A DNA stretch of 64,000 nucleotides from Azolla caroliniana (lineage: Eukaryota; Plantae; Polypodiophyta), in NCBI GenBank assembly GCA_043228905.1, contig JBHGNT010000022.1, forward strand, positions 5,828,001 through 5,892,000, written 5' to 3'. The notes below the pieces were generated by a model that ran no database searches, was not told where the DNA came from, and was given only the letters and a program-made list of their open reading frames with translations. Numbering within the stretch: position 1 is the stretch's first letter; each line of letters starts with the position of its first letter. Made by a program: the position numbers and the translations under genes. Of this stretch, positions 2,131-63,651 are shown in pieces.

Positions 2131-5100
2131 CTAGCTCTTGTCCGAATTGGTATCCTCTGATTCGATTTTCGGCTTCAGGCCTCTCACCACATCGGACCAC
2201 GTCCGGGTCTTGGCCTTCTCCGTGCTTCCCTTGGCTTCTTCAGCCGGTTCACCGAAGTCGAATTCTTCATTCGACTCCGCATCATGGCCATTACGATCTT
2301 GATGACCTCCGCATGGCATGCACTTCTCTTCCTGAGTGTACACTTCTTCTTCACAGCCGCTTACTTCGACCTGTTCGGATGTGCCGACTTCCTTCGTCGA
2401 CTCGGCTTCATTTTTCTTCTTGTCTCCACCTCTACCGGTTCTTCTCTTACCTACGGGTTCAACAGTTTTTTTGCCTTTGCCCGTTTTGGTAGTGTCTTTG
2501 CCCTTGCGTCTCCCCCTCAAGTGCGGCATGTCGAGATGCTGAACACCAAGCATTTCGGTAAAGTGCTGCAACTTGTCCGACCCGAGCGGCTTGGTGAAGA
2601 TGTCGGCAACTTGCCGATCCGTGTGAACATACCGTAGTTCAACTTCACCACTCAGGATAATGCACTTTTATGTGATAATGCACTTTTATGTGCTTTGTGC
2701 GAGCATGGAACACAGGGTTATTGGCGAGCTGCATGCTGCTAAGATTATCGCAGTAGATCAGGATCGGGGTCGGCACCTCGATCCGCAGGTCTTGCAGTAG
2801 TCGCCGAAGCCAAATGGCTTCGCAGGTGGCAACGGTCGTGCCCCGGTATTCAACCTCAGTGCTGGATAGAGCCATTGTTGGTTGCTTTTTGTTGCTCCAC
2901 GCAACAGCCGCGCTCCCAAGAGAAAACATAAAGCCGGAAGTTGAGTGACGATTCGTTGCATCGCCAGCCCAATCGGCATCCGTGTAGCCGACAAGCTCTT
3001 CGGTTATACCTTGCCGGTATAAGAGCCCCCGGTCCTTAGTGCCGCTTACATACCTCAGTATTCGTTGCACACACTGAAGGTGCTCCACGGTCGGCTTCTG
3101 CATGAATTGGGTTACCACTCCGACCGGATAGCTAATGTCGGGTCGGGTGATGGTCAAGTAGATCAGGCTTCCGACTATTTGTCGTAACCATTTCTCATCT
3201 CAGGCTGGTCCAGAGTTGGGACAGATCTTCTGATTCCGGTCCACGGGTGTGGAGACAGGTCGACATCCCGTCATGCCGAACTTGTACAACATATTCAACA
3301 CATAATGGCGTTGAGAAAGCAATATGCCGTTGGGGGTGTGGATCACCTCGATCCCCAAAAAATAATGAGGGTCCCCCAAGTCCTTCATATCGAATGCGTC
3401 CGACAACTGGGACTTGATGCGGTTGATTTCCGGAAGACCTGGGCCGATGATGACTAAATCATCAACATAGAGTAAGATAGATACCGGACCGTTTGAGCCT
3501 TGACGGATGAACAGGGAAGAGTCCGACTTAGAGGCACCAAACCCCATCTTTCACAACTGGTGCGTGATCTTAGCATTCCAAGCACGGGGGGCTTGCTTCA
3601 AGCCGTACGACTTCCTCAGCCGGCATACCGCCGACTTGTTCACCTCCGACTGAAATCCGGGGGGCTGAGTCATAAAGACTTCTTCTTCAAGATCTCCTTG
3701 AAGGAAGGCATTCTTCACATCCATCTGATGTAGATGCCACCCCCTTGCCGCAGCAATTGCCAGTATCACACGAACCGTCATCATCTTCGCTACAGGAGCG
3801 AAGGTCTCGTCGTAGTCAATTCTGTGGGTCTGCGCATATCCCTTCGCCACTAACCGGGCATTGTACCGGTTAACTGTACCGTCGGCATTGTACTTTACCT
3901 TGTACACCCACTTGCATCCAATCGGTTTACAGTGACGGGGAGGGTCAACCAGGTCCCAAGTTCCTTTGGCATCCAGTGCCCGCATTTCTTCCCCCATAGC
4001 GGCACGCCAATTTGCGTCCTTTGCCGCTTCTACAGAGCTCTCCGGCTCACGCACTTCCGCGACCTTGGTCATGTACGCATAATGATGCGCCATGTACTCA
4101 TTATACCTGTACCATTTAACGGGATCCTTCTGGCGGGTGGATCGGCATAACTCACCGTTACCCGGTATGAGACCCTTCTTGGCCGGTTCGGTCTTCGTTC
4201 CCGAAGATCTGCCTATGTCCTTGCTGAAGTCAAATACGCACCGATCCGACTCATCATTGCCGGTCTCGAATTCCGGCATCTTCTGCTTCCCTTTTTGTTT
4301 GTGTGTGAACCGTCTCCTTGGTTCCGTGCGCAGGGAGAGCACGACAGAGTCTCCACTACTCGCCATCTCATCATCTGATTGGTTGGACTGATCCAGTCTC
4401 TCATTTGGTCCGCTTAACCGGAATGTTTCCGGACTCTCATCTTGAGTCCCGGCTTCATCTTTCTCTACCTGGGCCGGTTCGGGCTCACTAGCCCCATCCT
4501 CCGACATCGGGTCGGGATCGGAAGTCGGAGTTGGTAAGGAATACCATGATGCCGATTCATCAAACTCGACATCTCGGCTGACTCAGACCTGCTTCGTCCG
4601 GGGGTTATAACACTTATACCCCTTTTGCTCTTGAGCATAGCCGACTAGGATGCATTTTTCCGATTTTGCATCCAGCTTTCTCTGCTTCTCATCTGACACA
4701 TGTACATAGGCTATGCTGCCGAATATCCGGAGGTGTCTCAAATTCGGCTTGCACCCGAAATATAGCTCGTGAGCTGACACCTTGTCCCCCATCCGGTTCT
4801 GGATGTAAACGACCGTTTGGACCGCCTCCGCCCAGTAGAACTTGGGCATGCTCTTTTCCTCCAGCATTGTCCTAGCCGCGTCAATTAGTGACCGATTCTT
4901 CCTTTCGGCCACACCGTTCTATTGCGGTGTGTATCTGTAGCTGAATTCTCGCCGAATTCCTTTTTGTTGCAGATAGCTGTTGAATTGGCTGGAAAAGTAC
5001 TCTTTTCTGCCATCCGACCGTAGGCATTTGATCTTCCTCTCCGATTCCCGTTCCACCATCTTCTGGAGGCTCCAGAAACACTCGAAGACTTCGCTCTTCC

Positions 5101-6850
5101 GCTCAATGAGGTAGATCCACGTATGCCGCGTGTAGTCCTCGATGAAGGAGACGAAATATCGATCCCCGCCAATGCTAACATTTTGTGTCGGTCCCCACAC
5201 ATCCGAATGGATAAGATCGAGCTTGTTACGGCTTCAATTTCTTTCGGTGGGGAATGGAAGCCGGTGTTGCTTCCCGAGTTGGCAGGCTTCACAAATCTGG
5301 GCTCTCCGGCCGCTAAACTTCGGCAAACCGAAAACGACTTGTTCTGTTTGCAGGTCTTGAAGCCTCCGGTAGTTGACGTGCCCGATCCACTTGTGCCACA
5401 GGTCGATATCCGACTCGACCTTTTGTCCTTTGGTGAACAGTGCGGTGCTGACATCATTGGTGTTGAGGATAAACATCCTCCCATCTCTGCGCCCTTGCGC
5501 AATAACTTCGCCCTCATCCTCAATGAAGCACCCGAGGTGTGTAAACCGCACCTGCATCCCCTGGTCGACGATCTATCCAACCGACACCAGGTTCTTCGTG
5601 ATCGTCTGAACATGTAATACATTCATCAGCTTCCCCCTCTGTCCGACGTGGCTCAAAGGGACTTCTCAGACGTGCACGATTGGGTGGGGAGTGTCGTCTC
5701 CGGTTTCGACAACTCCCGGTTGATTCGGCTTCTCCAAAAAGGATAACCACTCCTCATGGCTCGTCATGTGGTTTGATGCGCCGGGGACAACGTACCACAC
5801 TTCCTCCTTTTTGGAAGTGGTCTTCTTCATTGAGTTTGCCTTGTGCTTCATCACCAAGGCTGGCCCCTTACCGTTCTTGGATCCTCCCGATCCGTTTGCG
5901 TAGTGCGAGCTTTGCCGGCCTTCCTTACCGGTCTTTCCGTATCCGGATTTGTCTGAATCGGCATGCTTTCTCCAACACTCGCTTTCCCTATGGCCCTTTT
6001 TGCCACAATACCAGCATTCCATAGCGGATTTGTCTTGCCGGCCTCCGGCACCACCTTGACTCCCTCTGCTTGTGGAAGTCCCGGAACTACTGTCGGCACG
6101 CTCACTGTGCCTTCGTTCCTACTCTTTCCGGCCGCTTCCATTGCGTGCCGACCTGCCTCATCCACCACGCCCGCGGGACCGATCCGCTCCCGTGTACAAC
6201 ATCCGACTGTCTGGGGATGCACTGATAGATGCACCGGCGTGGTTCTCCTCTACAAGGAGCATCGACTGTAAGTCGAAAAATGAGGGCGTATTCTCCCTTG
6301 TACAAATCGCAGTTCGGAAAGCTCCGAACTTGGACGCCAGGCCTCCAAGACAGACCTGCACCATCTCGTCTTCCTCTACGGTGACGTTAATAGAGGCAAG
6401 CGAGTCACAGATCCCTTTGATCCGGGCTGTGTAATCTGCCACCGACATGTTCTTCTGTCGAACATTGCTCAACTCCTGTCTGAGTTGCAGCTTCCGGGCA
6501 GTGGTGCTTGCGGCAAAAACCTTTTTCAAGTTTCCCCAAGCATCCTTCGGTGTCTTGGCGTCACGGATATGGCTGAGTAGCTGGTCACCGACACTGGACG
6601 CGAAGTAGTACATCACCCTGCTTGCCGCCTGTTCCCACACTGGGAAGTCCTTGTGTGTCGTCTCCGGTGCTGAGTCGTTCACTCTGTCGACATAACTCCA
6701 GTAGCCATGCCCAAGCAGGTACTGGTGCATCTTGTATGACCAAGATGCATAGTGGGTTCTGTTGAGCTTCTCCACCGGGAGTGACGTAGCCATACCTCTG
6801 TCAATTTCTCCTTTTGTGTCTGTTTTCTGATCTGTTAGGGTTTCCTTCAC
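2131..6850 (-). pseudogene. Copia gag-pol polyprotein with frameshifts and stops
   Basis: gag 6158-6850; CCHC CWYCGKKGHRESEC and protease region (GASNHM) 5666-6022; GAG-pre-integrase/integrase 4583-5557; RT 3200-4507 ([16 protein letters not shown]); RNase H 2645-3157 (YTDADWAGD, CDN, HARTKHI). Confidence 0.95.
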
Positions 6851-6901
6851 AAATGTAGATTGACTACAGCAAAGATTCTCAACCCACGTGCTCTAATACC
6901 A

Positions 6902-7238
6902 TGTTAAAGATTGCTTGCGGAAGCGTTAGAAAGAACAGTACACAAAGAGAGAGAGAGAGAGAGAGAGTACGCGGGAGAGACAGAGATAGAGAGACACACA
7001 CTATTTTCCAAAATTATATGAATACTCTGTGCTCTATGTATCTACAACGCCTATAAATGCCTAGTAGTCTAACCTATACTAGGCTTCCAATTACGGATTG
7101 GATCCGGCATACCAGCTCCCCAGCTCACTGGTCCTTACTGCTTACCGGCTCGGTTGCTCACCGGCATACCGATTCATCTCGCTTACCGGCTCAGGCTTAT
7201 TCAGCCGATCCGGCTCCAGTTGAGCTTGCCGCTCAACA
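6902..7238 (-). repeat. 5' LTR of the Copia element, with an internal ~93-bp deletion
   Basis: Matches 1361-1788 but lacks the segment 1508-1600. Adjacent to the PBS. Confidence 0.95.
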
Positions 7239-8542: not shown

Positions 8543-10166
8543 ATGATATTTATAGGAAAGGCGGATGGCCAATGGAAACAAATCATGGGTTGAGGGTAAA
8601 ATCGGCTAATTCAACTATTCAGGAACTTCATGGAGCTTGCCCAAACATCAAACTTACGATTGGAGATGTGCCAAAGGAGAAACATTTCTTTATCGAAAAA
8701 ACCTGTTCGTACCCAATGATTCTTGGCTAACCATATATCACATCTTCTAGGATGGAGACGAAGGTGCTTGAAGATGGCTCGACGTATGCTAGGATTCAAA
8801 GTACTGATGGTAAAAGAAGTGTTCAATTTCTTAATGTTAGGCAGGAGCATGATAGAAATAAAGATGAATTCCGAATTAACTCATGTGAGCATGATATGTC
8901 ATCATATGAGTCAGATTTTTAAATAGGATCATTGATGGGCAGGGACACAATGGTCCCAAAGCTTTTCTTTCATTGCAAAAATGTTTTCTAGTTAATAAAA
9001 TAATCAATACTTTCTCTAATACAATAGATGGATTCACCTGTTACTTTGGTGTGGAAAGTGATGCACAAAATAAAGGGAGCAGGAAAATGTTGTCCATGCA
9101 TTGTGAACTTCAGGGATGATTGAAAGGGATGACATAATTATTTGTATGTTTCTTGAATATTTAGATGTGGATGTCAAAATATTAGAAAATTGCTTGAATG
9201 AGAAAGAATGCGACAAGAGATTTGTTTATGTTATTCTACTGATATGTACCTTCATATTGTTGATTTTATTTAAAAAAATGGTTGTATAGCTAATAGTGAG
9301 ATAGTTGGCAATAACTATCATGAAATAACTAAAAAAGCAAGTAAAAATAACTATGCAATAATAGTTGACACTAAATATAAAACAATAAACAAAAAGGTCA
9401 AGCCCGTGGCCCTGCATCTACCTATGGATAGTACTGAAATGAAAAAGAATGTCGCGTTTGAGCCAATATTACTGGATTCTAAGGTATTGGTCATAAGTTT
9501 ACAAATGCTACTTTAGATCAACTAAAAATTGGTGAGAATGATTTCCTTTTGCATGTTGAGATACAATGTTTTCGAAACATGATTGCTAGTCATGGGAAAG
9601 CATTTGCATTTGAGTCGAGTGAAATTGGTTGTGGAACCAATGATTATATTTACAGTTCCGCATATTCCTTGGAATTTAAGGCTTATCCCTGTTCCTCGGG
9701 CCCAAATGATGCAAGTAATAGCTTTGCTTAAGGAAAAAATAGAAATGGGTATCTTGGAGCCATCAGATGCCCCCTACTCGAATAAGTGGTTTAATGTACA
9801 CAAAAAGAATGGTTCATTAAGGATTTACAATCCTTCAATAGAGTTACAATTCGAAATATTGGTGTTGGACCGATTGTAGATGCATTTGTAGAGCTATATA
9901 TTCTATGTGTGATTTGTATTCAGGATATGATCAATTTCAACTTGCTATTGATAGTCATGATATAACTACTATAAGAACATGGATTGGATTGATGCGAATG
10001 TGTACATTGCCTCAAGGTGCTACAAATTCTATAATGCATATTGTGAATGCTATGAATAAAATTTTAAGAGATTTTGTGCCAAAAGTAACTATGCCTTTTC
10101 TAGATGTTGTTCCAATTAAAGGATGCTCGATGAATAAGAAGGAAGAAAAGCTCATGCCAAACAAAT
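8543..10166 (+). mobile_element. AT-rich degenerate FLDD-type Gypsy fragment (protease end and RT)
   Basis: EPMIIFTVPHIPWNL...ILEPSDAPYSNKWF (9583-9879) and DLYSGYDQFQL...LPQGATNS...MPFLDVVPIKG (9905-10130). Homologous to 23878-26285. Confidence 0.85.
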
Positions 10167-10693
10167 GTACCGGCTTTTGTCCATACATAACCTCCGTCGG
10201 CATATACCCTGTCACCGAGCTGTGTGTCGTTCTGTCAGCCCACAAGGCATAGGGTAATAGTCGTGGCTAATTCCCGACTCGTCCGTTGCATGCTCCTACA
10301 ATGGCTTTGATGATAGGTCCATACCCTCACTCGATCTTCCCATTCACTTCCGGATTGTAGGAAGTTGTGAGGGAGAGCTTCACGCCTAGTCATTCGAAGA
10401 GCTCCGTCGCTTCGTGCGCATCCAACTCCCCTCGGTCGGCCACTATCTTCCCCACACATCCGTATAGTCAAACAACCTCTTCAAGCAAAAATTTGCAAAC
10501 AGCTGAAGTCGTCTTATTTGTCAAGGCTCGTCCTTCCACTTGATTTGTCAAGTCTTCCCTTGCCAGCACTAAGTACTTCATTTGTCCCACCCCCATTGGC
10601 ATCGAGACCAAATCCACCATCCATTTTAAGTGTATGGTGAGTGGGTATGTCGGCCTTAACTCATCACGATGATGTATATTTGAATATATTTGG

Positions 10694-11127
10694 TGTCAGG
10701 AACAGTACTAAGACAGAGAAGGAATTAGTACTAAAAGAAGTATTAGTATTAAGAGAGGTGAAGAACTCTCGAGAGAAGGAGAGAGTGAGTGAGAGGGAGG
10801 GAGAGAGAGATCGAGAGAGAGAGAGAGAGAGAGATGATAAGAAAAGATATATATTATGTGAAGAAAATGTACTATAGCTAGGAGGCTTAAGACTGGCGTT
10901 GAACTGATTTGGTTCGAAATAATGCCTTGTGCCTCCTTTTATAGTGTTCTAAGGAATACTCCTGAAGTTTCTAGAATGTTCCAGAGAAATCTGGAATATA
11001 CATCAATTTTCTATAATAAAACGTAAATGAAAATAATATTTTATGTATTACAATGTATAGTCTAATGGTCAAGAGCTTGACCCATGTAGTATAAGGTCAT
11101 GGGTTCGAGTCTTGCCATATCATGACA
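10694..11127 (-). mobile_element. Solo LTR of a Tcn1-like chromovirus family
   Basis: TGTCA...TGACA with near-perfect TSD TTTGG/TTTGA. Reverse-complement homolog of the LTR at 36743-37191. Confidence 0.85.
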
Positions 11128-12050
11128 TTTGACAAGTTTCGCATGTGGACATGAAATGGAGTACATCTTTGTACATGCTTGGCCACCAGTACTTCTCCTT
11201 CAACTTTTCGAACGTCACCCATGTTCCTCTATGACCTGCCCAAGCACTCTCGTGGAATTCGGTCATCAGCGTCTCTTGCCCTTCTTTCTTCACCACCACT
11301 CGACGTGGTATTCCTGTCCTTCTTTTTGGATGTCGCCAAAGGAATCCTCCCTTCAAGAAATGTCGGTAAGCTTTCTTCCAGATTCGTAGGGCCTCCTCCT
11401 TTGTCAACGAAGCATCTGTCGTCAATGTTCTTAGGAATCTACCGATGAGCAACCACTCTCCTTCGTACTCGTTCTCGTTGAAGGCATGGAGGGTTTGCGT
11501 GTCCTGGTCTTCCGCCGACAATCGAGCCATCTTGAAGAAGTTGAGGGGGACATCTTCATCTTTCGAAACCATTTCGCTTCCATTTTCAAATCTTGCCCTC
11601 GACAACATGTCAGCCATGGCGTTTTTCTTCCTTGCAATGTGACGGATCTCTGGGTTTAAAGACTTAATGTAGGCGATCCACCTTAGCATAGCAAGATTTG
11701 GGGTCGCACATCCCGAGACCATTCTGAGAATTGGGAGACAATCTGTCTCTATTATCAGTTCGGACCCGATCGGGTAATCTTTGTCTGTCTTCACTACTGA
11801 CACAATACCCCAAAGTTCCCGCTTGACTTGGGCATATCTTTGTTGCCGTTCGCTGAGAATCTTTTCTCCGAACCAGACGACATATCGTGCATTATCTTCT
11901 CCTTCTTGATTGATGACCCACCCAATTCCGGTTGGGCTCGTATCTACGGTCACGTAAATCGGCTTTCCTTCGGCATAGTCGGCCTTCCTTAGTGCTGGAG
12001 CTTCAAGAAGCAGTTTCTTCAATCTTCGCATCACATTTGTATGCTCGCTT

Positions 12051-12511
12051 TGTTATATCCTAGGGCCGGACAATAGCCTAACACAGGGTGTCCACTCAAG
12101 ACACTTCACCAAAGGGTGATACGGCAAGATGACTTACGGCACAACGCTTAATTAGACCTTAATCGATTACTTAGCACACATCACTAACACGCGTAAGATA
12201 TAACAATGAGTACAGAACGGTAATCAATGCTGAAAGATTAAAGCAATAAGTTCTATTAATTATCCGCTCTCAATCACATTGTAACAGGGCCTTTATATAG
12301 GTCTCCGGTGCGAAATTCAAAACAGTGCCAACCGACACCTTTTCGGGATCGGTCTGGATCCGGATCGGCATACCGATTCCGGTCCGTCCGTCCACATCTT
12401 CTCATATATTCCTATATATTTTAAGACTACTAATTACAATAGTTCCCGAATAAATTATTCCTTTCACACTCTGGTTTGGACCTCCTTAAGCCTTCTTGCC
12501 AGTCGGTAACA
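12051..12511 (-). repeat. 3' LTR of Gypsy C
   Basis: TGTTATATCC...GGTAACA, direct repeat of 23409-23870. Confidence 0.95.
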
Positions 12512-12599
12512 CATGGCACGCCTGTGGGACAGTACCTGGTACGTCGAACCCATTATCCGGCCCTTTTATGCTTCATCCAAAATGTCCAGAATGCTTTGT

Positions 12600-15597
12600 T
12601 CCAAAATTTCCAATGGCTCGTCAGGAATCTGTTGTTGTTGTTGTGGCTGCTGTTCCTTTTGTGGCTGTGGCTGCTCCGTTTGTGCTTTCTCCGTTTGGGG
12701 CTGCGGCTCCGTTTATTGCCCTGGCACCGGCGTTTCCTTCGTTGGTTCCTCCGTCGGAGTTGTTTCTGGCTGACTGACCCTGGCCTAGTCCCCGTTTGGT
12801 CCTAGTACCGGCGACGGTTTCTCATCACTAAGGTTGACCGTTGCCGCCTTTCTTGCTTTTTCTTCCCGAAGCTAGGACCACTCATAGCTCTCAAACTGGA
12901 TTTGAGCCTCCAGCCGATCGTCATCCAGTTGAGCTACGAGCTGTCAGACCTGCACCAATTGTTCATCCGCCAGGGCTGTGAAATCTTTAGCCAACTCATC
13001 CCTTATGGCGGTGAAGTCCTCCGATGTCAGCATATAACAATCATCACCCTCCTTCCGCCGGTTTTCCACGTCCGCCCTGAGCAATTGGAGTTCCGCCGTA
13101 TTCTGCGCCCATTTCGTCCACCAACGCAAAGAGCTATCGTCAATCAAGCTTTTGGTCTTAGTGAGCCATGATCGGAGGATGCACTGGATCCGTTCGGCTC
13201 CCATCCATGATTTATTTTCTACGGCTTGTCGCTCCTCTTTCAATTGCTTGATGATTCGGACCTTGTCCGCCTCCTGCTCCCTATAATGCAACAATTCATT
13301 TTGATAGGTTGTTTGCAACCTCTGTAATACCATTGTCGCTCTTTCCTTGTCTTCATGGTTATGTTTGTGGAACTCCATCCGGTCATTTGCCGCTTCCTCC
13401 AATAGCTTGGAATTCTCAGCTCGTTCTTCGGCGAGTGCCGCTGTCACCCTATCAACTTCTTGCCGGAGCTCGGCCATCCGTTCCTGCTGTTGCTTATACT
13501 CCGTCTCTAGCTACTTGTAGTCCCGATGCAGATGATCAAAATCATCGGTCTTCTGCTTCAGCCTCTAGTTGATCTGCCGGCACTCGTGGTCCTCCCAGTC
13601 CTTCTGTTCACGGAGTTCCTCCTTCAACCTCTCGATTTCTGTCTCCGCCATCCGTCGCAGCTTGTCTTTTTCCTCCTTTAGCCAATCATACGCATGATGT
13701 CCTTTACGCAGGTTTTCCTCTGCCCGGCGGGGGTTCTCAACAGTCTTTTTTAATTCTTCTTCGGCCGCCTTCTTCAAGTCGCGTTCGCGGCTCCGTAATG
13801 CTTCTTGTGCGGAAAGTTCATCTCATAATTCCGCAAGCTCTTGGGCTTGCGTCGCATCTTTCTCCGGGATAGTTTGTGTCTTCGGGGTCTTATTCCTTTG
13901 TACATCAATCGGAGCCACCGGTGCTTGGATCTGCGTTACGGTTAAGGCCATTTTGGCCATGTCTTCGGTAATCCAATCCAAGTCTTGTTCGAGGCACCGG
14001 ATCCTTGACCGGGCCGTCTCCAGTTCATCGGTTGTGACGAGCAACCGTTCCGTTTGCGCTCTTTCTTCCGCCTCTATGCATCCGAGTACTCCAACAATTT
14101 GTTCTCCTATCCACCGGAGCCATTGGCTGCCGGTGCACTGTTGTTGCGCTTGCACGGAGGGTTGGCTGATGGGTTCACTCGCCGGTGGCTGGTCCCGCCT
14201 TACTGCGTCGAGTTGCACTCCAGGTTCTGCCAGCTAACCACTTTGTCGTTCCGGCTCTGACTGTGTTTCGGCTAGCCACCCCTTGTCTGCTTGTTCTTGG
14301 CCGGCTGGGAAGGTTGGACTTTGTATATCCGGCTCTTGAGTTACGGGGCTTGCCGGTGCTGCCTGTTGTGTAGGGACTTCTGTGATCGGTTCCATCCGAA
14401 CCGGTTCCGGTGCCTCCCTTAGCGTGGGATGCTCAGTGTGAGTTGCGGGCGTTCCATCCTTCTGTAGGTCCGAATGCTTCCCGGCTGATTGAGCGGTGCT
14501 CTTCACCGGCCGCCGCTAGAGGTGCTCCATGGGTTCTTCCTCCATTTCCTCCGCCTGAGTCCTAGCATTCATTCTTGCCGCCAGGGTGTCCGTTTCTTGC
14601 TGCACCGGTTGGTGGAGTGGGCTCTTCAGGGCCCGTGCCGGTGTCTCCTCATGTGTGTCCGTCAGCCGCTTCCGGCTGGCGCGCTCCTTTGCCGCCTTTT
14701 CTGCGTCAGCCGTCTTCCCCTCAGTGGCCTTGGAGGCCAACAACTGTTGACATTTCGAAGCAGGTTTCGGGGTGCCGTCCGTTGCTCTTCCCCGCTTCTT
14801 GGTCTGGACGGGCTCGACCGGCGGCACCAATAGGGTGAGCCATTGCGTCACCGCATGCCATATTTTCCGGCCTTCCTTGCCGTCCTTTCCTCTACTATAT
14901 CAATAGCCGTACACAACCCGTCGGCGATAAGCACCGGCCAATCCACCTTGACCCCTTCGTATGTTGCGATGATCAAGCCTGCTCGGTTCTGAGGCATGAC
15001 GGGGGGTTGAGGGTACACGTGGCCAAACTCATGGAGCACATGGGCAATTTCGCAGAATAGCATATCTTCGCCGCCCTGTGTCCTATAGCCCTTGCTGGCG
15101 AGAGAGTACCCACCGAAATATTTGATGATTTGCTCGGAGGTAGGATTGTCGATCGTGTAGATGCCTCCCTCTGGAAGGCCTATTAATGCACGGATCGCCT
15201 CCTCCGTGATCACCTTTGTTTCGATTTCTTTGATAATCTTTTCGGCCTCCTTGTGTGGCGCCACCTCCATGATCGTTAAGAAACCCTCCAGTCCGTGCTG
15301 CCGTAGCCATTTCTTGGCGGCTTCAGACAGCGTTTGGCAGTCCATCTCTGCATCGAGGTCGGAGAGCGTTGGTGAGGTTTGGTGGTCGGGAGAGTGTGAG
15401 AGAGAAAGTTCTGAGGGAGGGGGTTCTCTGTTTGCGAGCTCTCTGCGATTGATCTTCACGCGTCTGTCTACGTCTGTTCTCCTTGGTTCGCGATAGGAGA
15501 AGGTCTCGATGCGTGGGGGTTTTTCTCTCTGCATCTTGGCGCCTTTTTCGAGCCTACGCATGTGCAGGTCGTGTACTATAATAGCATTGCGTGCCAT
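12600..15597 (-). pseudogene. Extra ORF of Gypsy C between integrase and the 3' LTR (globular N-terminal part, Pro/Thr linker, long coiled coil), broken by stops
   Basis: Consecutive same-strand ORFs 14848-15597, 14516-14851, 14234-14506, 13823-14218, 13565-13777 and 12944-13477, the last two E/K/R/L-rich. A homolog of GLIIATYEG..DW occurs near 36095-36200. Confidence 0.7.
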
Positions 15598-15899
15598 GTG
15601 GCCCCTTGTACCTTTTCAACGTGCCTCTTTACTCCTCGTTTGCATGGCCGTTTCCAGCACTCCTTTTCATGATTTATTTGATTCCATTCTTTTTTCTTTT
15701 TCTTTTTTGAAAGTTCATTGTGTGGTTACTTTTTCTCCGGTCCCCTTACCCAAATCGCGCACCTTGCCGGCCTCTTGACGGTTTGCCGTCGTTATGCATT
15801 CCCCGGTTGCCGGCTCGTGCTCCCCCTTACTGGCTGCAGGCGTTTTCCTCACGGGTATCCGTCATGGTTGCCCTGCCGGCGTCTGATTCGGTGGCGTTC

Positions 15900-18800
15900 C
15901 TTCGTTCAAATGGGTTCTTTGGCATATAGGTCCTTTGTATGGCTTTAGTCTAAATCCGTTGACCCATTTACCCTGCACTTCGCCAGCAGGTGTCCCTAAC
16001 TGGTAGGATCCATTGAACTCGTGTGTGATCCAGTACGGTCCGGTTCATCTAAACCATAGTTTGCCTGGCATTTTACCCATCCGGGTCTGGAACACTAGTA
16101 CCGACTTGCCGATTTCGAACATTTTCTCGTTTCCCTTCCGGTGCCGATCTACAATTGCTTTCCGTCACCGTTGTTCCGATTCCAGGTGCATGATGCTCGC
16201 CAGTCGGTGTTCTTCTAGTTAACACAGAGCCTTTAACCGAATTGCCTCTGATTCCTTTTCATTGAGTCGTTCCCGAATCTGAATCCGTAAGCTCGGTACC
16301 TGGAATTCGACCGGCATGACTGCCTCTAATCCGAATGCTAACCGGAACGGCGTTGTTTGGATGCTTGTTTTGTACGCTGTCCGGTAAGCCCAGAGTGCAC
16401 TATGCAGCTTCGTGTCCCAATTTGTCGGATTCTCATTGACGATCTTGCGCAGGATATTCTGTAACGTTTTGTTTGTTGACTCCGCTAATCTGTTGGCTTG
16501 TGGGTAGTAGGGGGTGCTCCGTCTATGAAATACCGCATTGAATGATGTCAAGCTCTCCACTACTTGTCCAAGAAAGTGCCCTCCTTGGTCGCTTATCAGC
16601 TCTATGGGGCATCCGTACCGGCACCAAATGCATTCATATAAGAATTTTGCCGTTGACGCCGCGGTGTTATTTCATAAGGCTTTGGCTTCCACCCATTTAG
16701 TGTCGTAGTCCGTCGCAACGATCACATACCGGTTGCCAGTTCTCATTGCCGGTGGTTTAAATGGTCCGACAAAATCCAATCCCCATTTCTGAAATGGTTC
16801 TAGCGGTAGTACTGGCTTGTTCCATTGGCTAGCCCATTTGCTGGCATAGATCACACTCTTTCGCATACCGGACTGCGTCCTTCAATGTAGTCGGCCACCA
16901 TAGGCCACTTTGCCATATCTTCCTAACCGTATAGCATCCCCGGCATAATGGCCTCCGGCGACTCCGCAATGTGCTTCCCGTAGTATTACCTCTTTCTCGT
17001 CGCTGCGCACCGCTCGTCGCCATATACCGTCTGCACCTTTGTGGTATAGCGTGTTCTGTAATAAACAGAAGTGCCGGCTTGTACCGCCAGGCGCGTCCTC
17101 TCGTCCCGGTTCATCTCCTTCGGAGGCAATCCAGTACTCAGAAATTGGTGTATATTCGTTAGCCACTTATCTTCTGGTGCCACCGTTTCATCTGTTGCTG
17201 TTTCCGCAGTGACTCGAAATAGCTCAGCATTCGGAAACTCGTCTGGTACTCCGTCGTCGGTTTCGCCGGAATCTAACCAGCTTAAATAATCTGCTACCGC
17301 ATGCTTTATGCCGGGTCGGTGGAATATCTCGAATTCTAACTCCTGCAATAGCAAAGTCCACCAGGCCAACTTACCGGTAAGTGACGCTTTGGACACTAGG
17401 TAGAGGAGTGCCGAGTGATCTACATGGAAGGAAAACTTTCTTCCCAACAAATAGTGCCTAAATTTTGTTACGCTGTAGACCATGCCTAAAGCTTCCCTTT
17501 CCGTGGTGGAGTAATTTCGTTCGGCTTGGGATAACTTCCGACTTGCGTAATATACGGGCCGGTACAATCTTGGCTCTATAAGTTGCATCAGCCCACTCCC
17601 GATTGCAATGTCGGACGCATCCACGAACACATGAAATTCCTTCACCCAATCCGGGGGTTGCACTACTGGCGCTTGCGACAATAGAACTTTGAGTGCCCGG
17701 TACGCCTTATCTTCGGTGTCGGTCCACTGGAACGGTGTTTGGTGTACCGCAGCATGCAGTTGTGTAGCTAGGTCCGCCAAATACCGGAGCATTCGGCTAT
17801 GCCAACGGATTTGTCCTAAGAAACCGCTCAATGCCTTTGCCGTTTTTGGTGCTGGTGCCTCCTGGATCACTTTTACTTTGTCTAGATCCATGGCAATGCC
17901 TTTCTTGCTCACAATATGCCCTAGTAGCGTTCCGCTGGACACTCCAACTACACACTTCGCCGGATTCAGGCTTAACCGGTATGCCCTACACTTCTCTAGA
18001 CATAGTCTGAGGTGCTACAAATGATCTTCTTCTTGGCTATAGACAGCGAAGTCGTCAAGGAACACCTGCATAAAAGTTGGTATGTATTCGCCAAAGATCT
18101 CCATGATGATCCGTTGGAATGTTGCCGGTGTCGTTTTTAGTCCGAACATCATCACCACGGCAACAAACACTCCCCATTCGTTACGAAAGCCATTTTCTCT
18201 TGATCATCAGGGTGCATCCGGATCTGATTATACCCGCTGAATCTGTCTAAGAAACTGTAGACTTCATGGCCGACGACGGCATCCAAAACTCCATCTGTAA
18301 ACGGAAGTGGAAATGCATCCGTTATCGTTGCCGCATTGAGCTTCCGGTAGTCAACACAAACTCTAATTTTGCCGTTCTTCTTCGATACGACTACGATCGG
18401 GCTCAGCCATGTAGATTTCTTTACAGGACGGATGAAGCCAACCCTCAGCAATTTGTCGATTTCCTCCTTGACTTTGGCGGCGTAGTTTGGATTCATCCGG
18501 TACCGACGCTGTGCTACCGGCTTGGCGTCTTTGCTCAGATGTATCTGGTGTTGATACAACTGAGGATCTAGCCCTCTCATATCCTCATAAGAACAAGCAA
18601 ATACGTCGCGAAACTCGTTGAGGAGTGTAATTATCGCCGTTTTGTTCTCTGCATTCATTTCTTTGGCGATGTGCACCAGTTTTGCCTCCGTCGTTCCTAG
18701 ATTTACCTCTTCTAATTGAGACGCTTTTACGTGCTGTTGATCTTCGGGTTCTCCAGCAAGTATTGATCTTCTTCTTTGTCTGCTAATCCTTCGAGCATAT

Positions 18801-19135
18801 TGACGCACTCCGCATATAACGGTGTCAGATCCTTGCCGGTGCCCTTCCTTGGTTGTGTTGGTACCCGTACCTTCGCTTTTCCCCGCCGGAACGTAATCAT
18901 ATTCCTCCTCCAGTTCTGCTTGATGTGTGTCTTCTTTAACCAAGGGCGTCCCAACAATAATGGGTACGCTCCTTGAGCCTGCAACTAGAGAACTATAGCT
19001 GAGATTCGGAATGTGTGGGCCCCAATGGTTACTTCTAAGTTCCGTATTAATCCTGTCGGTCACACCGAGCTTGTGTCCGCCATTCGGAGCCAGAACAGAC
19101 ATGGCTCCCACTCTTGGATTCCAAGAGCCTCGCAC
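15900..19135 (-). pseudogene. Gypsy C pol (RT, RNase H, integrase)
   Basis: RVCVDYRKLN and FLDRFSGYNQI (RT); VDASDIAIG and ERNYSTTEREAL (RNase H); KWGLDFVGP and STPYYPQAN (integrase). Confidence 0.93.
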
Positions 19136-21573
19136 GTCCGGAGGCTTATTACATTAACGCCGGAGCCTCCGTCTATTATCGTGTCGGGGAGTTCTTTCCC
19201 TTTCACAATGGCCGTAATTGTCGGACTGTTGGTGTCCACCACCGTCGGTCCTTCCTCCGGATTTGAGAAGAATGCCGGAGCCGGTGGTGTGCCGCCTGTC
19301 TTCATGCCAGGGTTGAGTCCGTTTGTGAATCTTGGTACTAGCTGCAAGAGTCGTCCTAATGGCAACGTGATGTGGCATTCCTGCAATGCCTGCGATGTCC
19401 CGTTTTCGGACTGATTGCCGCCGGCGAGCTCTTCAGTGTTCTCCTTTTGTTGCGCAAGTTCTGCTACACTTCGCTCATTTGCCTTTTTCACCCATTCCGT
19501 TGCCTGTTTCTGGATGGCCTCTTGTATCTCCCATTCCGTCGTCTTCCCCTTCGACCTTGTGGTGACTTGCTGTAGGTCTACGACTTTGGCGACTACCATG
19601 TTTACTGTCGGTCGCTTATCATAGCTCTTTGCCGGACATTGATTACTATAATGTCCTTCTTGCCGACAATAATAGCAATATGCTTTCTGGGTATTGCTGG
19701 ATTCAGCATTGTTTCCTATACCCGGTGGAGGACCTGTGGTAACCGCGGGGCTCTGGTCCAATTGGCTGCTTGAGGCGCCTTTTTCCGGTCCACGTGGGTG
19801 GCTCCCGTTTTTGAAATGCCGTTTTTTATTAAAGTTCTTTTTGTTGCAGTACCCTTGCCGGGATTGGTCATCATATCTCCCGTAATCTTCCCGTCGTTGG
19901 TGATACCCGAGGGAGTGATCCTGGTTGTGATGCTCGTACCGCCCATTGTAATCTCGGTACTTGTCATATCTCTTGTACCGGTCATAGTTTTCTCGCCAAT
20001 CGTCGTACCGGACATCCTGTGCTGGTCGATATCGCTCCTCTCGCCGCCATCGTACGTCTTCTTCATCTCGACTGCTACGTGGCTCGATTTTCTGGACTGG
20101 TGGTGCTTGCCGATTCAATAAGTTATATTCACACTGGTCCATCGTGTGGCTTGTAGATTGGTAGAGTAAGCAATGCGTCCGCATGGTGCACTCCAGTGAC
20201 GAGTGTCCGGAATTCAAGCAGGTCGTGTATTGGATTGCTTGCCGGAAACGGGGATCTTCATCGGTTGGTAATGCTCGTTGGAGGGATCCCATTGTTAGCC
20301 AAGAGCTCGTTTTCTCCATTTCTCTAACCCGGTCGATGACCTGGTCGACGGTGCTTGTGCGAAAGTCGATGACCGTGCATACCGTTCGTAGAGGTTCCCG
20401 GAGCGCGGCTAAGAATATAGCCCGTGTTTCTTCCTCCGGAGGTGCGCGGGTAAGCTGATTGTGCATCCGTTGAAACCGGATGACAAACTGCGGAATGCTC
20501 TCCCCGGGGTCCTATCGGATGGTATAAAATAGGCCCACCATTTCTCTCTGGTCCACCTCCTTCTGAAAGAAGTGCAAGAATTTATCTTTCAGGTCCGCAA
20601 AGGTTGTGATGGTGTTGCGATCCTGTGTCCGATGCCATCTGGCGGCCGGTCCTTCCAATGTCATGCCGAATTCGGCTATCTTAGATCCTTCCTCTTCTGC
20701 CGCGGTTAACCGTTGTGACACATGGTTCGCCTCCCATGTTTGTTGAAACGCGTGAACATGAGCCTCCGCGTCCGGATCCTCCCTATACTTGGAGTACTGG
20801 AACGGCATGTCGTCGTCTGGTGTCGATACGTGGGCTGGTGGTGTCTGTGGTCTTTCCTGGTGTTCCGTCGGCGTCAGAGGTCTTTGCGGGTCTTCCTTTG
20901 CTGTTTCTGGCTCGACTTCCGGTTTTGGAGGTTTTTGCCGGTCTTTTTCCGTCTCCGGAGGTTGCTCCATGTCTAGTGCTGGAGGTTCCCGGTCTGCCAA
21001 CTCTGGTTCCGGTGTCGGTAATGTATCTGAATCCTCGTCCTCCGGTTCTCCTGGGGTGTCATTACTACTGCGATAGTTCGTGTGCGCACTATAACCCCCT
21101 TCCGAATCTGATTCCAGTGCTGAAAATGCTTCGTATTCGCCGTCTCTTCCGGCCAAGGCCTGGAGAAGGGTTTCCGCTTCCTAGAGATTGCTTAAGCTGC
21201 TTCCTTCGTCCGGGTAGGTGTTTTGTTGCAAACGAAGCGACTCCTCCGCCACTTTTCGGATCACTTTGGAAAATGATCGATCTGTTCGGATTTCTTCTAC
21301 TGCTTGCTGGAAAGCCTCTCACCACCTTCTCCGTTCAGCAAGTCTTCGTGCTCTCTCCGTAACCGGGTCGTCTGTTGGCCTAGTCATCCATTCCTGCCGT
21401 TGTTCACTACGATTGTGCAGGAATCGTGGTTTTAGGGTTAGGGTTAATGATAATGATAAGAATAGGGCTAGCAATGATGGTAGATTGATAATGAAGATAG
21501 ACATAATGTAATGGTAAAAATGATGATGAGTATGAGATTGATGGCGAGAGAGATCATGTGCATTGAGAAGCAT
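19060..21573 (-). pseudogene. Gypsy C gag-protease
   Basis: ORF 21319-21573 is in frame with 20512-21156 across two stops. ORF 19060-20466 holds zinc knuckles and the protease motif IIDGGSGVN. Confidence 0.85.
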
Positions 21574-21661
21574 TGCGGGGTGGGGGGTGGTGCCTAGAAT
21601 GGCTCCACCCCCCTCCCAAGGGGATTCAACGTTGAGTTGGAGAGAGAGAGAAAGAGAGATG

Positions 21662-21696
<35 letters not shown>

Positions 21697-23386
21697 TGAT
21701 TATATGTTTCATTCATTCCCCATAAAGGGGTTAAATAGTACAAGAGGGGGTAGATACAAAGGGGTGTAAGCCCCCTAGAGCATTCATACTGGACACTCAC
21801 TCACACCTCCTCGTATCCATCCACATGCACACACGTGTGCATGTGTTCACATATGTATCGACTCACAATTACATTTATGCCCCCTACACACACACAACAA
21901 TCATCATGATAACATTTGACCCTCGCTCATCACATTGACTCTCCGTACATCTCATACGGGGTAACACAATATGGCACGCCCGTGGGAAAGTGCCTTGCAC
22001 GTCGATCCCACATGCCTTGATGATGATATTTCTTCGACCAGAACTTCCATCGGTCCTTTCAACGATCGACTCCCTCGATCGGAATGCTTGACTCGAACAT
22101 CTTTGTCGGTCAACAAATCGTCCGTGACACAAACATTCTTGTTCTGTTGGCTTACGAACTTCGTCATGGGTCCAAAATCATGTCGTATGTATGTGTGTTC
22201 TTCCTTTGTTTTGAGTGTGTGTGAGTAGTCTTGGGGATTTTCAAAATTTTGGTGGTGCCCTCTTGTTTTTTAAAATTTTGATATGTACCCTCGAGGTTTC
22301 ACAATTTCATTCAGCACCCTCAGGGTTTCAATATTTGTTACATGCCCCCCCCTTTTTTTTTTCTTCTTTTTCCCTCTATTTTTAATTTTATTCTAGGTTT
22401 TTCTCTTTATTTCTTCTTCTTGCTCTTGTATCTCTGTCTCTCTCGTGCTCGTGTTTGTCTCTCTATGCCTTTCTCTTCTTCAATTTTCTGCTTTCTCTTC
22501 TTCTTTCTCTCTTATACCACTACTGCCTCTTTTTCCTTTTTCTTTCCTCTTCCTGTGTGCTTTCGTTCTTGTCTTCATCTTTTTGTTTTGACGTATCCCG
22601 TCGGCCTCCTGTCAGGTCTCCTCCTGTGATGGTTGTCGGCTCTGTCGACGGTGTTTGTCTCTCTATGCATACTGGAAATTGATCCAGCCACTATCCAGTG
22701 GTTGCCGCTCTGCCACTGCCGTTGTACCACCGCCGCTCCATCCGATCACTGTCTCTATCTGACCCGATGGCTGCTGGTCGGCCACCAGTCTAGCCGTTTG
22801 GTATGTGGCCACCGCCGTCCGATCGTCGTCCCGACTCCATCACCGTTCCGATTGTTCAGCCCATTGCAGTCGTTGTTTGGCAGTTCTTTGTCCAACCCAT
22901 CTGGCCACTTCTGTTCCGGTGACGGTCAGCCACTACGACCACTCTTTGGTCGCTCTCCGGCCTCTCCTCTGTCGATGTCACTGGTCTAGCCATCGATCTT
23001 TCTTAGTACGGCTCGTTCCAGTCGGGTTCGGTTGTTGTCCAACTGCTCCCATCTATGTTCATTTCCCGCACACGCACATTGCTAGTTCTCGTACACTCGC
23101 ACATCCGTATCGTCGTGTCTCATTTTGTGATTTACGCTAGCACATTGTGATCACCATTTACCGCACATCGTCGATCCGATTTCTTGTACATTCCTTCACT
23201 GCGTCCCTTCATTGATTTCTTTGCGGACATCGTCATCGCATATCATGCTTCAACTTCGTCTTGCACTTTGCCACCATCATTTGTCGCTAACCACACACTC
23301 GCACATCGTCATCGTTTCTAACCGCTTAGTCACTATGTCTTGCATCAAGGCATATCATCCTTTGACTCCGTCTCCAAAGGGTGTCG

Positions 23387-23401
23387 CCATCGTGGTTGCC
23401 A
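23387..23401 (-). promoter_or_regulatory. Putative degenerate PBS of Gypsy C (tRNA-Arg-like)
   Basis: Minus strand TGGCAACCACGATGG, 7 nt inside the 5' LTR end. Resembles the complement of tRNA-Arg(UCG) 3' end as recalled, with mismatches. Confidence 0.45.
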
Positions 23402-23408
23402 AAAACTG

Positions 23409-23870
23409 TGTTATATCCTAGGGCCGGACAACAGCCTAACATAGGGTGTCAACTCAAGACACTTCACCAAAGGGTGTTACGGCAAGATGACTTATGGCAC
23501 AACGCTTAATTAGACCTTAATCGATTACTTAGCAACACATCATTAACACACGTAAGATATAACAATGAGTACAAAACGGTAATCAATGCTGAAAGATTAA
23601 AGCAATAAGTTCTATTAATTATCCGCTCTCGATCACATTGTAACCGGGCCTTTATATAGGTCTCCAGTGCGAAATACAAAACGGTGCCAACCGGCACCTT
23701 TTCGGGATCGGTCCGGATCCAGATCGGCATACCGATTCCAGTCTGTCTGTCCACATCTTCTCATATATTACTATATATTTTAAGACTACTAATTACAATA
23801 GTTCCCAAATAAACTATTCCTTTCACACTCTGGTTTGGACCTCCTTAAGCCTTCTTGCCAACCAGTAACA
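23409..23870 (-). repeat. 5' LTR of Gypsy C
   Basis: Direct repeat of 12051-12511, followed by TSD CGCTT. Confidence 0.95.
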
Positions 23871-26800
23871 CGCTTTGCTATTCGAACTTCATTCTTTTCT
23901 TTAGTAGTCCATATAACGGTTCGGCGACATGAGCGTAGTGAGGAATCCATATATGATAAAACGTGCATGCTCCAAGGAACCTTCGAACCTTTGTTTGGTT
24001 TTCGCATTCTTCTCTCATGTCTTGGATTGCATTCACTTTGGATGGCGAGGGCTTCCGGACATATGCTCCACACAAGTGACCTACCACCAAGATCTCTGGT
24101 TGCCCGAATGCGGATTTTTCTCCTGAAAATGTCAAATTCGCATCTTCGAGCCTTTGAAGCACCTTCTCGCAATCGTTCATATGATCCGCAATGAACTTTC
24201 TACAACCTCCCTTATCTTTCAATTCATCTTTCTCTTCATCTGAACATCCTTTTATCGGAATATCATCCAAGAATGGCATCGTGATGTCCGGGATGCAATC
24301 CTTCAAGACTTTATTCATGGCATTCACCATATCAGCAACCGAGTTCGTTGCGCCTTGGGGTAAGGTACACATCCACAGAAGCCCGATCGGAGTCCTCATG
24401 GTTGTAATGTCCCGACTGTCGATCGCCAATTGGAATTGGTCATATCCGGAGTAGAGATCGCCAATGGAGTAGATGGACCGGCCTGCAAACGCTTCAGCAA
24501 ATTCGTCCATGCTCAGACCGATTCCGGCATTTCGAATTTTCATCTTGTTGACGGGTTGAAGATCTTGGATGAATCACAATGATCCATTCTTCTTCGACAC
24601 CGTAAACCACCTATTGGAATAAGGAGCATTCGACGGTTCTAGAATTCCCATACTCACCTTCTCCTTTAAGAGCTCGATCAGGTTCAAAAGGTGTGCTCTC
24701 GGAACTGGTATCGGTTTCAAATTCCAACGCACATGAGGCACCGTGAAGATCACCATCGGCTCTATAACCTTCGGGTCGGCACATCCGATTTCTCATGGGA
24801 AGAATGCGAAAGCCTTCCCATGTCTCTCAAGCATATAGCGAAACATTCCCTCCTCTTCAGGGAGAAGGAAATCCTCCTTTCCAACTCGTCGCTTCCCCTT
24901 CGTCTCTTCGGTGAAGACATGACCTATCGTCTTCAAATCTCTTAAGCTTGGATCGTTAGCAGCTTCCTTCATCTTTTGCCAGCTATCTTCCGGTAGCGGA
25001 ACCGCAACTGGCTTGATCTTCTTATCCACCGTTTTATATTTCGTGTTGATGTCAGCTTCCTTCTTCGAGATGCCACGACAGTATTCATCGATGATAGCCT
25101 ACATGTTGATGGAGTTAACCGAAATCACGCGTTGGTCGTGAAGATAGTTCAAGTCCACGACTTCCTCGATTTCGCCGATGGTGTCGTTAAATGAGGCTTC
25201 TTCCATAATATCAGTCACGAACTCTCCTTCTTCTATTATGTTTTCTTCTTTCAGCATCTTCTCGAGTTCTTGTATCCGAAGCTTGTCCTTCTTCTCGGGT
25301 AGTACTAGTTTACATGCGCCACTAGGTGTGACACATGTTGCTTCTCCTCGCAATCCACGCACTCTTCTTTCTTGTGGGGTCTTGTGATTGTTCGGACTAT
25401 TTGTGCCCCATGCTTCAATAGTCTGCTCTAAAAATCCGAGGATTCGCCTCTGAGACTCTCTCAATTCCTTTCATGATTGGCTCGCACCATTAGGAATTGG
25501 ACTGATCTTTGGTTTTCAAGACTCTTTATTCGTGCGAAGGCTGCTCCATTATCAAACACTTTGGTCTCCATCCGAGATGATGTGATATAAGGTTTCCCTA
25601 GGATGATAGGATGCGACGTCGATTCTTGTACGAAGAAGTGTTGATCCATCTCCACATCCGCGATCGTGACTTTGACATTGGGACAAGCTCCGTACAAGTC
25701 CTCTGTAGACTTTGTTGCCGCACGAATCTTCCATCTGTGGTTTGTATTGATTGGCCATCTTCCTTTTTTGTAGAAGTCGGTTGACATGAGGTTGATCTCC
25801 GAGCCGTGGTCGATCAAAACTACCACGGTCTCTTTCTTCTCCCCGATCTTCACCGGCGTCTCCATTGTCACTCGTGCCCAATGAGGTCGAGTATAGTGGT
25901 TGTCCATCATATCTTCATCGACTTCGTCTCTTGCCATCGTTATGGCATTCTTTTTTGCTTTTTGCAGCTTCTCTTCTTCCTCGTCCGATTGTTGTCTTTT
26001 TCTCTTTACAAGGTCCACGATCGTGTCATGGAACTCCTTCGTAAATCCAAGCAATTCCCTCAAGTACAAAGTCACATGACTATCAAGAACTTGTTCTTCG
26101 AGAATCTTCTTTAGGTCCGTCGTTTGCTCTATGTCTGACCTTAGCTTATAGGTAGGCATAGTCCTCGTCCTCCGAGTGGGGTCTTCGACACCAACCTTCA
26201 CGGGCCGAACCGTTTCTTCAACTCGTATGCTCGGCTCCCCTTTTCGGCTTGATTCTCGTTCCTCCGTTTGTAAAGGTCGACTCATCTCCGCATCGTCCTT
26301 CTTTTTCCCGTTCTTCGTTTCATGCCTTTTTTATAGGCCTTGCTCTTCTATTCTTTTTCTCTTTTCTTCGACGAACACCTCATGGTTGTCTCACATCACC
26401 TCTGTGAGTATGGTGTTGTTGTCCACCGGATCCGACCACCCGGTTAGGCTTTGCACGCTTCGGTCTGCAAGCTCTACCTCGTTCGATGTGACCTTTCCCT
26501 TCTTCTCATATTCGAGAACGGAAGTCCAAAAACTTTGCTCCCGCTCTAGCAGCTTCAGTCTTGTCTTTCCTGACTCTTATTCCGGCCGACGCAACATAGT
26601 GCATTGCATCCACATGAGTCGCATAGGCATCCTCTGTAGATTTCTTCATTCCTCCTCTTCCGAAATTCACCCGTATGGGTCATCTAGTCTCACTCGAGCA
26701 GATCATGTTGTCATCTATGTACACGATATTTTGTCGGATCGCCTCTCGAAGGCTCGCGCAATCCCTTCTCATGTGGTCCATGCTATCGCACCACACGCAT

Positions 26801-36742: not shown

Positions 36743-37051
36743 TGTCATGATATAGCATGGTATGGCTCCAAAAGGATTTGAACCCATAACTTTGTATCAC
36801 ATGAGTTGAAGCCCTACCATTAAGCTATACATTGTAATACGAAAAATATTGTTTTCATTTATTATTTCATCTAGAAAATCCATGTATATTCTAGATTTCT
36901 CTGGAACATTGTAGAAATGTCAAGAATACTCCTAAACACACTATAAAAAGAGGCACATGGCATTATTGAGAACCAATTCGGTTCAATGCCAGTCTTAAGC
37001 CTCCTAGTTGTTCTTGTAACTTTTTTCATATAATATAATATACTTATTGTT

Positions 37052-37097
<46 letters not shown>

Positions 37098-45159: not shown

Positions 45160-45231
<72 letters not shown>

Positions 45232-63472: not shown

Positions 63473-63651
63473 TATTAATATCGATCGGGGAGGGGGGGAA
63501 TCCAGATTGATTCCTCCACAGTGATGGTGATGAACTCGGATGATGGTGTCCTGAGACTAGCGGTTAGTATGTAAACCTCTTTCGGTCCATCCTCTCGGTA
63601 CAGATAGATACATACATACGTAAATTAAATGAGAGATAGATGAAGGAGTAG

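Follow-up and report, generated by a model that had tools for sequence, protein, structure and literature searches.

Priming of the plus strand from a polypurine tract (PPT) is, to our knowledge, treated as near-universal in LTR retrotransposons and retroviruses. The Ty3/gypsy element described here, element C, shares with the canonical replication cycle, as set out for Ty3 and HIV-1 in parts of PMC5371799 and PMC2665208, its LTRs, its domain order, a tRNA-primed minus strand, a primer site directly upstream of U3 and integration with target-site duplication. The difference lies in the nature of that primer site, which is a PPT in the canonical case and a copy of a tRNA 3′ arm with a hairpin in C. 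A PPT is ascribed to "most" Ty3/gypsy elements in a section of PMC6317226, so an element without one can still belong to this group. Bipartite or second primer-binding sites (PBSs) are described for Ty3 and Drosophila gypsy in excerpts of PMC5371799 and PMC1635307; on the genomic RNA, these form the complement of the tRNA; they place no primer end against the LTR and coexist with a PPT, whereas the sense strand of C is identical, not complementary, to the tRNA. The Helenus TRIMs, in the portion of PMC10886601 consulted, are like C LTR elements with tRNA-derived sequence; unlike in C, their tRNA-like part serves as a promoter within the LTR, they possess a PPT and the author excludes a priming role. 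Searches of open-access text turned up no account of a tRNA site standing in for a PPT, and the arrangement in the C lineage is apparently undescribed.

Element C and its 3′ junction

The window, that is, the whole analysed stretch of 64,000 nucleotides of Azolla caroliniana contig JBHGNT010000022.1, carries many nested LTR elements. The gag, RT, RNase H and integrase domains of C were assigned by Pfam and all lie on the minus strand, which makes the repeat at 12051–12511 its 3′ LTR; the protease was called by eye from the ORF list, and the order gag, protease, RT, RNase H, integrase is found. The TG...CA ends and the 5-bp duplication indicate that C integrated normally, and its insertion point is the RT/RNase H region of another Gypsy. 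The extra 3′ ORF (ORF2) gave no Pfam match in the two pieces scanned, and its homologues serve to orient the 3′ site in other loci. Elsewhere in the window, a one-family Copia pair (2368–6994 and 45217–49849; 79% alike, in opposite orientation) with an ordinary tRNA-Met-type PBS and normal PPTs provided controls. Two related solo-LTR-like inserts (10694–11127 and about 36743–37190) begin with what resembles, by eye, an antisense tRNA fragment in the manner of Helenus, and Rfam reported nothing in the insert at 10694–11127. A host gene with introns and eight MORN repeats lies on the minus strand at 61000–63556 and is, we assume, probably a phosphatidylinositol phosphate kinase.

Table 1. Coordinates of element C, its 3′ site and the nested unit D in the window
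Feature	Position	Strand	Basis or remark
Element C	12051–23870	minus	Ty3/gypsy LTR retrotransposon, non-chromovirus
Left target-site duplication CGCTT	12046–12050	.	directly outside the 3′ LTR of C
3′ LTR of C	12051–12511	minus	TG...CA ends; 435/462 columns identical to 5′ LTR
Spacer, tRNA-like CCA to LTR TG	12512–12513	minus	2 nt
3′ site of C, proximal part	12514–12530	plus	complement of tRNA-Arg(UCU) nt 76–59, partner of nt 66 missing; minus-strand cDNA polarity
Inserted 4-bp hairpin	12532–12542	.	opposite tRNA positions 58/59
3′ site of C, distal part	12544–12553	plus	complement of tRNA nt 58–49 (T loop, T stem)
Extra 3′ ORF (ORF2) of C	12570–15600	minus	broken in the window copy; ends ~15 nt upstream of the 3′ site
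gag–protease–RT–RNase H–integrase of C	15900–21390	minus	Pfam matches and ORF list; stops and frameshifts
3′ LTR of nested non-autonomous unit D	21431–21966	minus	matches LTRs in L032, L056, L001, L063
3′ site of unit D (second 40-mer)	21972–22011	plus	5 nt from the LTR of D
Internal part of unit D	22012–23386	minus	no coding match found
5′ PBS of C	23387–23401	minus	14/15 nt complementary to rice tRNA-Arg(CCG) (part of PMC5492330); 7 nt from LTR
5′ LTR of C	23409–23870	minus	sequence comparison with the 3′ LTR
Right target-site duplication CGCTT	23871–23875	.	5-bp match to the left copy

Inspection of the LTR junction revealed no polypurine tract ahead of the 3′ LTR of C. Within the 200 nt upstream, purine runs reach at most 8 nt in C, and at most 9 nt in its relative L124 (see below); neither of these longest runs abuts the LTR. 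The first-pass annotation had proposed that a tRNA-end-like element stands in this place, and such an element is indeed found there, 2 nt from the LTR. Both 40-mers that it described are present exactly as written. Of their 40 bases, 33 agree, against a score of 23 for the best other 40-mer of the window, and the 16-nt core has exact matches in the window only within these two copies.

The proximal part of the site was compared with the tRNA in locus L002 and with rice tRNA-Arg(UCU) (PMC5492330). By this comparison, the 3′ motif reads as the 3′ arm of tRNA-Arg(UCU) minus nt 66, plus a ~13-nt hairpin-bearing insert at nt 58/59. The proposed likeness to the T arm and CCA end of tRNA-Arg(UCU), one base short, thus holds for a host-type tRNA. 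The distal part can also close an outer stem with 12524–12528, and the window copy has private variants at 12523 and 12538. ARAGORN and Rfam reported no tRNA in the window or in 10000–25000. Folding energy does not set the hairpin apart (z 0.39 and −0.94 for the two copies; −0.94 to 0.70 over six stretches folded as single sequences), and RNAalifold predicted only a 3-bp stem without covariation, not the inner hairpin. Support for the hairpin comes from the covariation described in the next section.

A complete tRNA-Arg(UCU) including CCA is found at L002:1190–1265 (Rfam 71 bits, E 6.4e-14; ARAGORN), and its last 28 nt are identical to one rice isodecoder in the listed part of PMC5492330. The copy stands in PBS polarity, joined to an ORF2 tail, in a short deletion derivative. 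The simplest reading, and a likely one, is that RT once copied a whole primer tRNA; a tRNA gene with a chance CCA behind it is a conceivable alternative, as the contig stops 1 nt later. Sequence like this tRNA is found with varied flanks in all four host-type sequencing runs. When L002:1190–1266 was matched to these runs, many joints at which the sequence goes back on itself were observed, again with varied flanks, which point to tandem or SINE-like copies of a tRNA-Arg-like sequence. A C/T dimorphism at motif position 10 mirrors two rice tRNA-Arg(UCU) isodecoder types (PMC5492330, in the part available). It is plausible that the 3′ site originated as an inverted PBS copy extended by tRNA read-through, as in L002.

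The second 40-mer had been noted as a copy of identical length; the sequence is as written, and it proved to be the 3′ site of the nested non-autonomous unit D and not a second site of C. Its assignment to a second C LTR was rejected, as it belongs to D, which has an LTR of its own. In locus L046, the C LTR and PBS run straight into window position 21430, which marks 21431–23386 as an insert. The 5-nt spacer of D recurs in L032, L041 and L100. The U5 end of the D LTR is fused to the post-PBS sequence of C at a 3-nt overlap, and we infer that a template switch at the shared PBS likely produced this fusion. Short non-autonomous units that stand in tandem with autonomous elements, or are fused into them, at the PBS or the 3′ site were seen at window 21431–23386 and in L052, L053 and L056; they share the PBS type of the autonomous partner, and their recurrence suggests habitual template switching at tRNA sites. 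The LTR of D also contains a 74-nt GC-rich inverted repeat (21556–21629), which recurs at an unrelated place in the window, 36648–36720 (93% alike), and in many D-type LTRs.

Conservation and covariation of the 3′ site

Metagenome data were scanned with a pattern made of the LTR end and the first 16 nt of the motif (20 of 64 parts covered), which yielded at least 122 loci. Together with the two window copies these give 124 sites, of which 7 were too short, 85 were placed in the family and 32 were set aside, the family set being adjusted by hand (L081 and L102 moved in; L008 and L010 moved out). The 3′ site is therefore present in at least 83 metagenome loci, the family sites less the two window copies. 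Because the first 16 nt are fixed by the search pattern, the unbiased evidence consists of the hairpin, the distal part and the single locus L124. The family sites fall in 20 LTR clusters (61 sites with enough LTR scored), in autonomous and non-autonomous families alike; the 49 family loci with listed records all come from one assembly series, a narrow host range. The 32 sites set aside lack a distal match, and no retroelement frame was seen in the eight viewed by eye.

The spacer measures 2 nt in 75 of 85 sites of the automatic classification, and in 85 of 88 sites the 40 nt ahead of the LTR contain no purine run longer than 4. Where ORF2 or integrase homology was matched (15 loci), it lies inside the site and on the opposite strand in every case, which places the site at the 3′ LTR. 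The converse reading, a plus-orientation LTR with the motif as an ordinary 5′ PBS, was rejected because the coding homology is all on the other strand.

A perfect inner stem is present in 61 of 85 family sites versus 3 of 32 sites set aside, and occurs in seven versions (GTGC/GCAC 36, GGAC/GTCC 11, GGGC/GCCC 7, GTAC/GTAC 3, GCGC/GCGC 2 and two singles). The compensatory change noticed between the two window copies extends to all four pairs of the inner hairpin, each of which shows two-sided changes among 66 distinct rows. None of 500 shuffles reached the covariation score, and in slid controls the two-sided cells drop from 42 to 9 or fewer, these counts referring to related sequences and not to independent events. 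The outer stem is 89% paired without any two-sided change, its 5′ arm being fixed by the search pattern.

In four runs carrying three organism labels, depth in the bin with the motif exceeds that of the adjacent internal bin 7- to 14-fold, and 34–43 contigs end loose at 12552 in each run. Both the depth peak and the loose ends are as expected for what the motif is, an island common to unrelated families.

To reach relatives independently of the motif, a protein alignment was searched in genome contigs, giving 39 loci, among which L124 is the sole close full-length relative (54% identity). Its 1.65-kb LTRs are 93% alike and its pol frame stays open over 2,444 codons. L124 shares 93% identity with P0128, a member of an 8-row clade that also contains C (support 99, quick tree). 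Before the 3′ LTR, L124 has no PPT but an 8-bp hairpin, then 15 nt that match the tRNA-Arg(UCU) end at all but one position, then a 2-nt spacer. The hairpin starts at the same distance as in C, and the 9-nt tRNA end occurs once in the 22.8-kb locus. The target duplication of L124 is imperfect, and an assembly error nearby is possible. The locus sits in a bacterial assembly, with bacterial genes far to the left and AT-rich plant-like DNA to the right, likely a mis-assembly or mis-binning. More distant Gypsy relatives (L123 and L142, 32–38% identity) have ordinary PPTs; L125 and L129 end before the 3′ LTR, and the other pattern matches in these assemblies fall in bacterial-type sequence. Viral contigs contained one distant relative, with no integrase match and no motif match.

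Collectively, the 3′ site is real, conserved and lineage-wide. The first-pass annotation had named beforehand what would speak against it, namely normal PPTs in most intact copies, a motif without conservation or covariation, or a host without a matching tRNA; we found relatives without a PPT, a conserved and covarying motif and a matching host-type tRNA-Arg(UCU). It is true that the window copy is broken and that aberrant copying of a tRNA does occur, as in L002, and a functionless, one-off copying accident in dead copies could be imagined from these facts. The 20 LTR clusters with compensatory changes, the spread over autonomous and non-autonomous families and the open frame of L124 make this reading almost certainly wrong.

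Candidate routes to plus-strand priming

In position and polarity, the 3′ site mirrors a PBS in the place of a PPT. Inward-facing PBS-like sites had been proposed at both LTRs, and both are present, although the 5′ one matches tRNA-Arg(CCG) and not the UCU isoacceptor. Every PBS read in the lineage is of tRNA-Arg type, namely Arg(CCG), Arg(ACG) or Arg(UCU). The relative L046 has a perfect 13/13-nt match to tRNA-Arg(CCG), and L124 an 18-nt match to rice tRNA-Arg(ACG) (PMC5492330, in the part available). C and D, both with Arg(CCG)-type PBSs, and L124 all keep a UCU site at the 3′ end, with which their PBSs share only 4–5 initial bases. In the loci with an Arg(UCU) 5′ PBS, the isodecoder base at position 10 is the same at both ends in 13 of 13 (7 C, 6 T), which amount to about five families (3 C, 2 T) and would arise by chance about 1 time in 10 (p about 0.1).

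This agreement would also fit pairing of the 3′ sense copy with the 5′ PBS of the same RNA, by which the genome might circularise or the minus strand prime itself. The two sites are complementary in the UCU-PBS families, and Ty3 and Drosophila gypsy bring their 5′ and 3′ ends together via tRNA sites, according to passages of PMC5371799 and PMC1635307. Such pairing fails in C, D and L124, which keep the UCU site nonetheless, and the missing PPT stays unexplained; we regard this route as very improbable.

The genomic RNA carries the tRNA's own sequence and so cannot bind the tRNA at this site, whereas the minus-strand DNA can. The explanation we prefer, with a probability of roughly 0.55, is that tRNA-Arg(UCU) of the host anneals to the minus-strand DNA at the 3′ site and primes the plus strand. 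Briefly, tRNA-Arg on the 5′ PBS would start the minus strand as usual; RNase H would clear the template, and the minus-strand DNA would fold as an irregular hairpin with ~10 nt free. The 3′ end of the second tRNA would then pair with the DNA over 11 bp, a one-base bulge at nt 66 and a further 6 bp, with the small hairpin looped out opposite nt 58 and a possible continuation of pairing along nt 57–49. RT would extend the tRNA across the 2-nt spacer into U3, and an RNase H cut at the tRNA–DNA junction would leave a 2-nt end for trimming by integrase. On the DNA strand, the outer stem is predicted in 33 of 63 distinct sites, with the first 10 nt free in typical cases, and in both C and L124 the hairpin begins where an 18-nt PBS would end.

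A second route to priming would need no packaging of another tRNA: the element RNA itself might fold like a T arm, escape RNase H, keep ~10 nt on the cDNA and, after a cut behind the CCA, prime the plus strand as a built-in mimic. In polarity and location, the sense RNA would suit as a substitute for a PPT, and RNase H does cleave at the 3′ ends of tRNAs (within the consulted part of PMC5371799). For this strand, folding predicts the outer stem in 25 of 63 sites and the inner stem in 22, leaving an unpaired 3′ tail that ends in CCA, and position 57 is a purine in 56 of 63. The T-loop signature bases of the sense strand, on the other hand, are not kept, the equivalent of A58 being changed in 20 and that of U55 in 18 of 63 sites, and the T loop is broken by an insert of 12–16 nt. 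These losses favour the second tRNA.

The pattern of change within the site bears on the same choice. The positions facing tRNA nt 55 and 56 are both unpaired in the self-hairpin, and among 63 distinct sites they show 1 and 0 transversions, respectively. The position facing nt 58, by contrast, carries a non-pairing base in 20 sites, in 12 of them through a transversion. We take nt 58 to be m1A, which cannot pair, so that free variation opposite it would be expected. The few transversions at the former and the free variation at the latter argue for a real tRNA, as do the L124 sense strand, on which folding predicted no T arm, and the shared base at position 10, which an RNA mimic does not predict. 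In one family, a fixed change in the outer stem is a wobble on DNA and a mismatch on RNA (9 G-U cells, pair 15–39), a count to be read with the search pattern in mind, as it hid the reverse case. Changes that wobble pairing tolerates are transitions too, and they do not tell the two models apart; non-standard pairs of the inner hairpin are about equal on both strands and favour neither. A real tRNA and an RNA mimic are thus only weakly told apart, and we consider the mimic a possible but doubtful alternative.

Two difficulties attend the second tRNA. C, D and L124 would have to package a second tRNA species without pairing to their RNA. In addition, sections of PMC2665208 report that HIV-1 RT engages a non-PPT RNA annealed to DNA in the orientation for RNase H, cleaves it and extends it poorly. 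A tRNA on DNA must consequently escape cleavage, either because this RT differs or because the hairpin redirects it, and the same burden falls on the built-in primer. The RNase H motifs look intact in P0121 and P0123.

Finally, the site may act as a structural or protein-binding signal derived from a captured tRNA copy (an RNase H guide, a packaging signal or a strand-transfer aid), with priming from another nearby fragment. The covarying part is a self-hairpin and not tRNA-derived, and some families extend their self-stems against the tRNA (6 of 63 sites at nt 54, 7 of 63 opposite nt 59), both of which suit a signal. It leaves unexplained the fixed 2 nt from the CCA end to the TG, in the families and in L124, and the survival of tRNA identity over ~45% protein divergence, and the short purine runs ahead of the 3′ LTRs of C and L124, neither of them abutting the LTR, also speak against it. 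We hold this explanation to be improbable.

Whether a second tRNA or a built-in tRNA-like primer is at work, each of the two leading models would be new. The success of this lineage, with its several families and no PPT, represents another way to set the left cDNA end. If a tRNA is indeed used, RT would extend it on DNA without destroying the primer, which canonical RTs avoid. The case is relevant to PPT evolution and to what decides whether RT cleaves an RNA primer or extends it; 3′ tRNA fragments would also gain a second target on these elements. In annotation, software that relies on PBS and PPT for orientation can place elements of this kind the wrong way round or lose them.

Affinities of the lineage

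The nearest named RT–RNase H relatives of C come from Adiantum, Riccia, Marchantia and Calypogeia (41–52% identity). In a quick tree, built without REXdb reference elements and with its deep forks open, the C clade falls together with proteins of ferns and liverworts and is separate from those of pine and angiosperms. Slightly better than even, in our estimate, are the chances that C represents an old non-chromovirus Gypsy clade of non-seed plants that would use two host tRNA primers, one on RNA and one on minus-strand DNA, a structured DNA PBS having replaced the PPT.

The label "Tat/Ogre-type" had been suggested for the PBS-like reading of the motif. It fits the tRNA but not the lineage: the Tat lineages (TatI–III, Ogre and Retand) possess an archaeal-type RNase H in the account excerpted from PMC6317226, unlike C, as no RVT_3 or RNase_H domain is listed for P0121, P0123, P0125 or P0128. 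The distance from RNase H to the integrase zinc finger is 102 residues in P0121 and P0123. Phygy differs from C in its 4-bp NCGN duplication, its tRNA-Trp PBS and, as far as the same part of PMC6317226 describes it, the lack of an extra ORF, against a 5-bp duplication, tRNA-Arg and an extra 3′ ORF in C. Athila is set apart by a tRNA-Asp/Asn/Ala PBS and a conserved PPT junction (portions of bioRxiv 10.64898/2026.03.20.713144); like the C lineage, it shows no chromodomain or extra RNase H among the domains listed in PMC6317226 (in part). The features that C has in common with Athila, Tat, Ogre and Retand, in the sections of PMC6317226 available, are the 5-bp duplication, a length of ~10–12 kb and the extra 3′ ORF, and with Ogre/TatIII, from the same sections, it shares the tRNA-Arg PBS.
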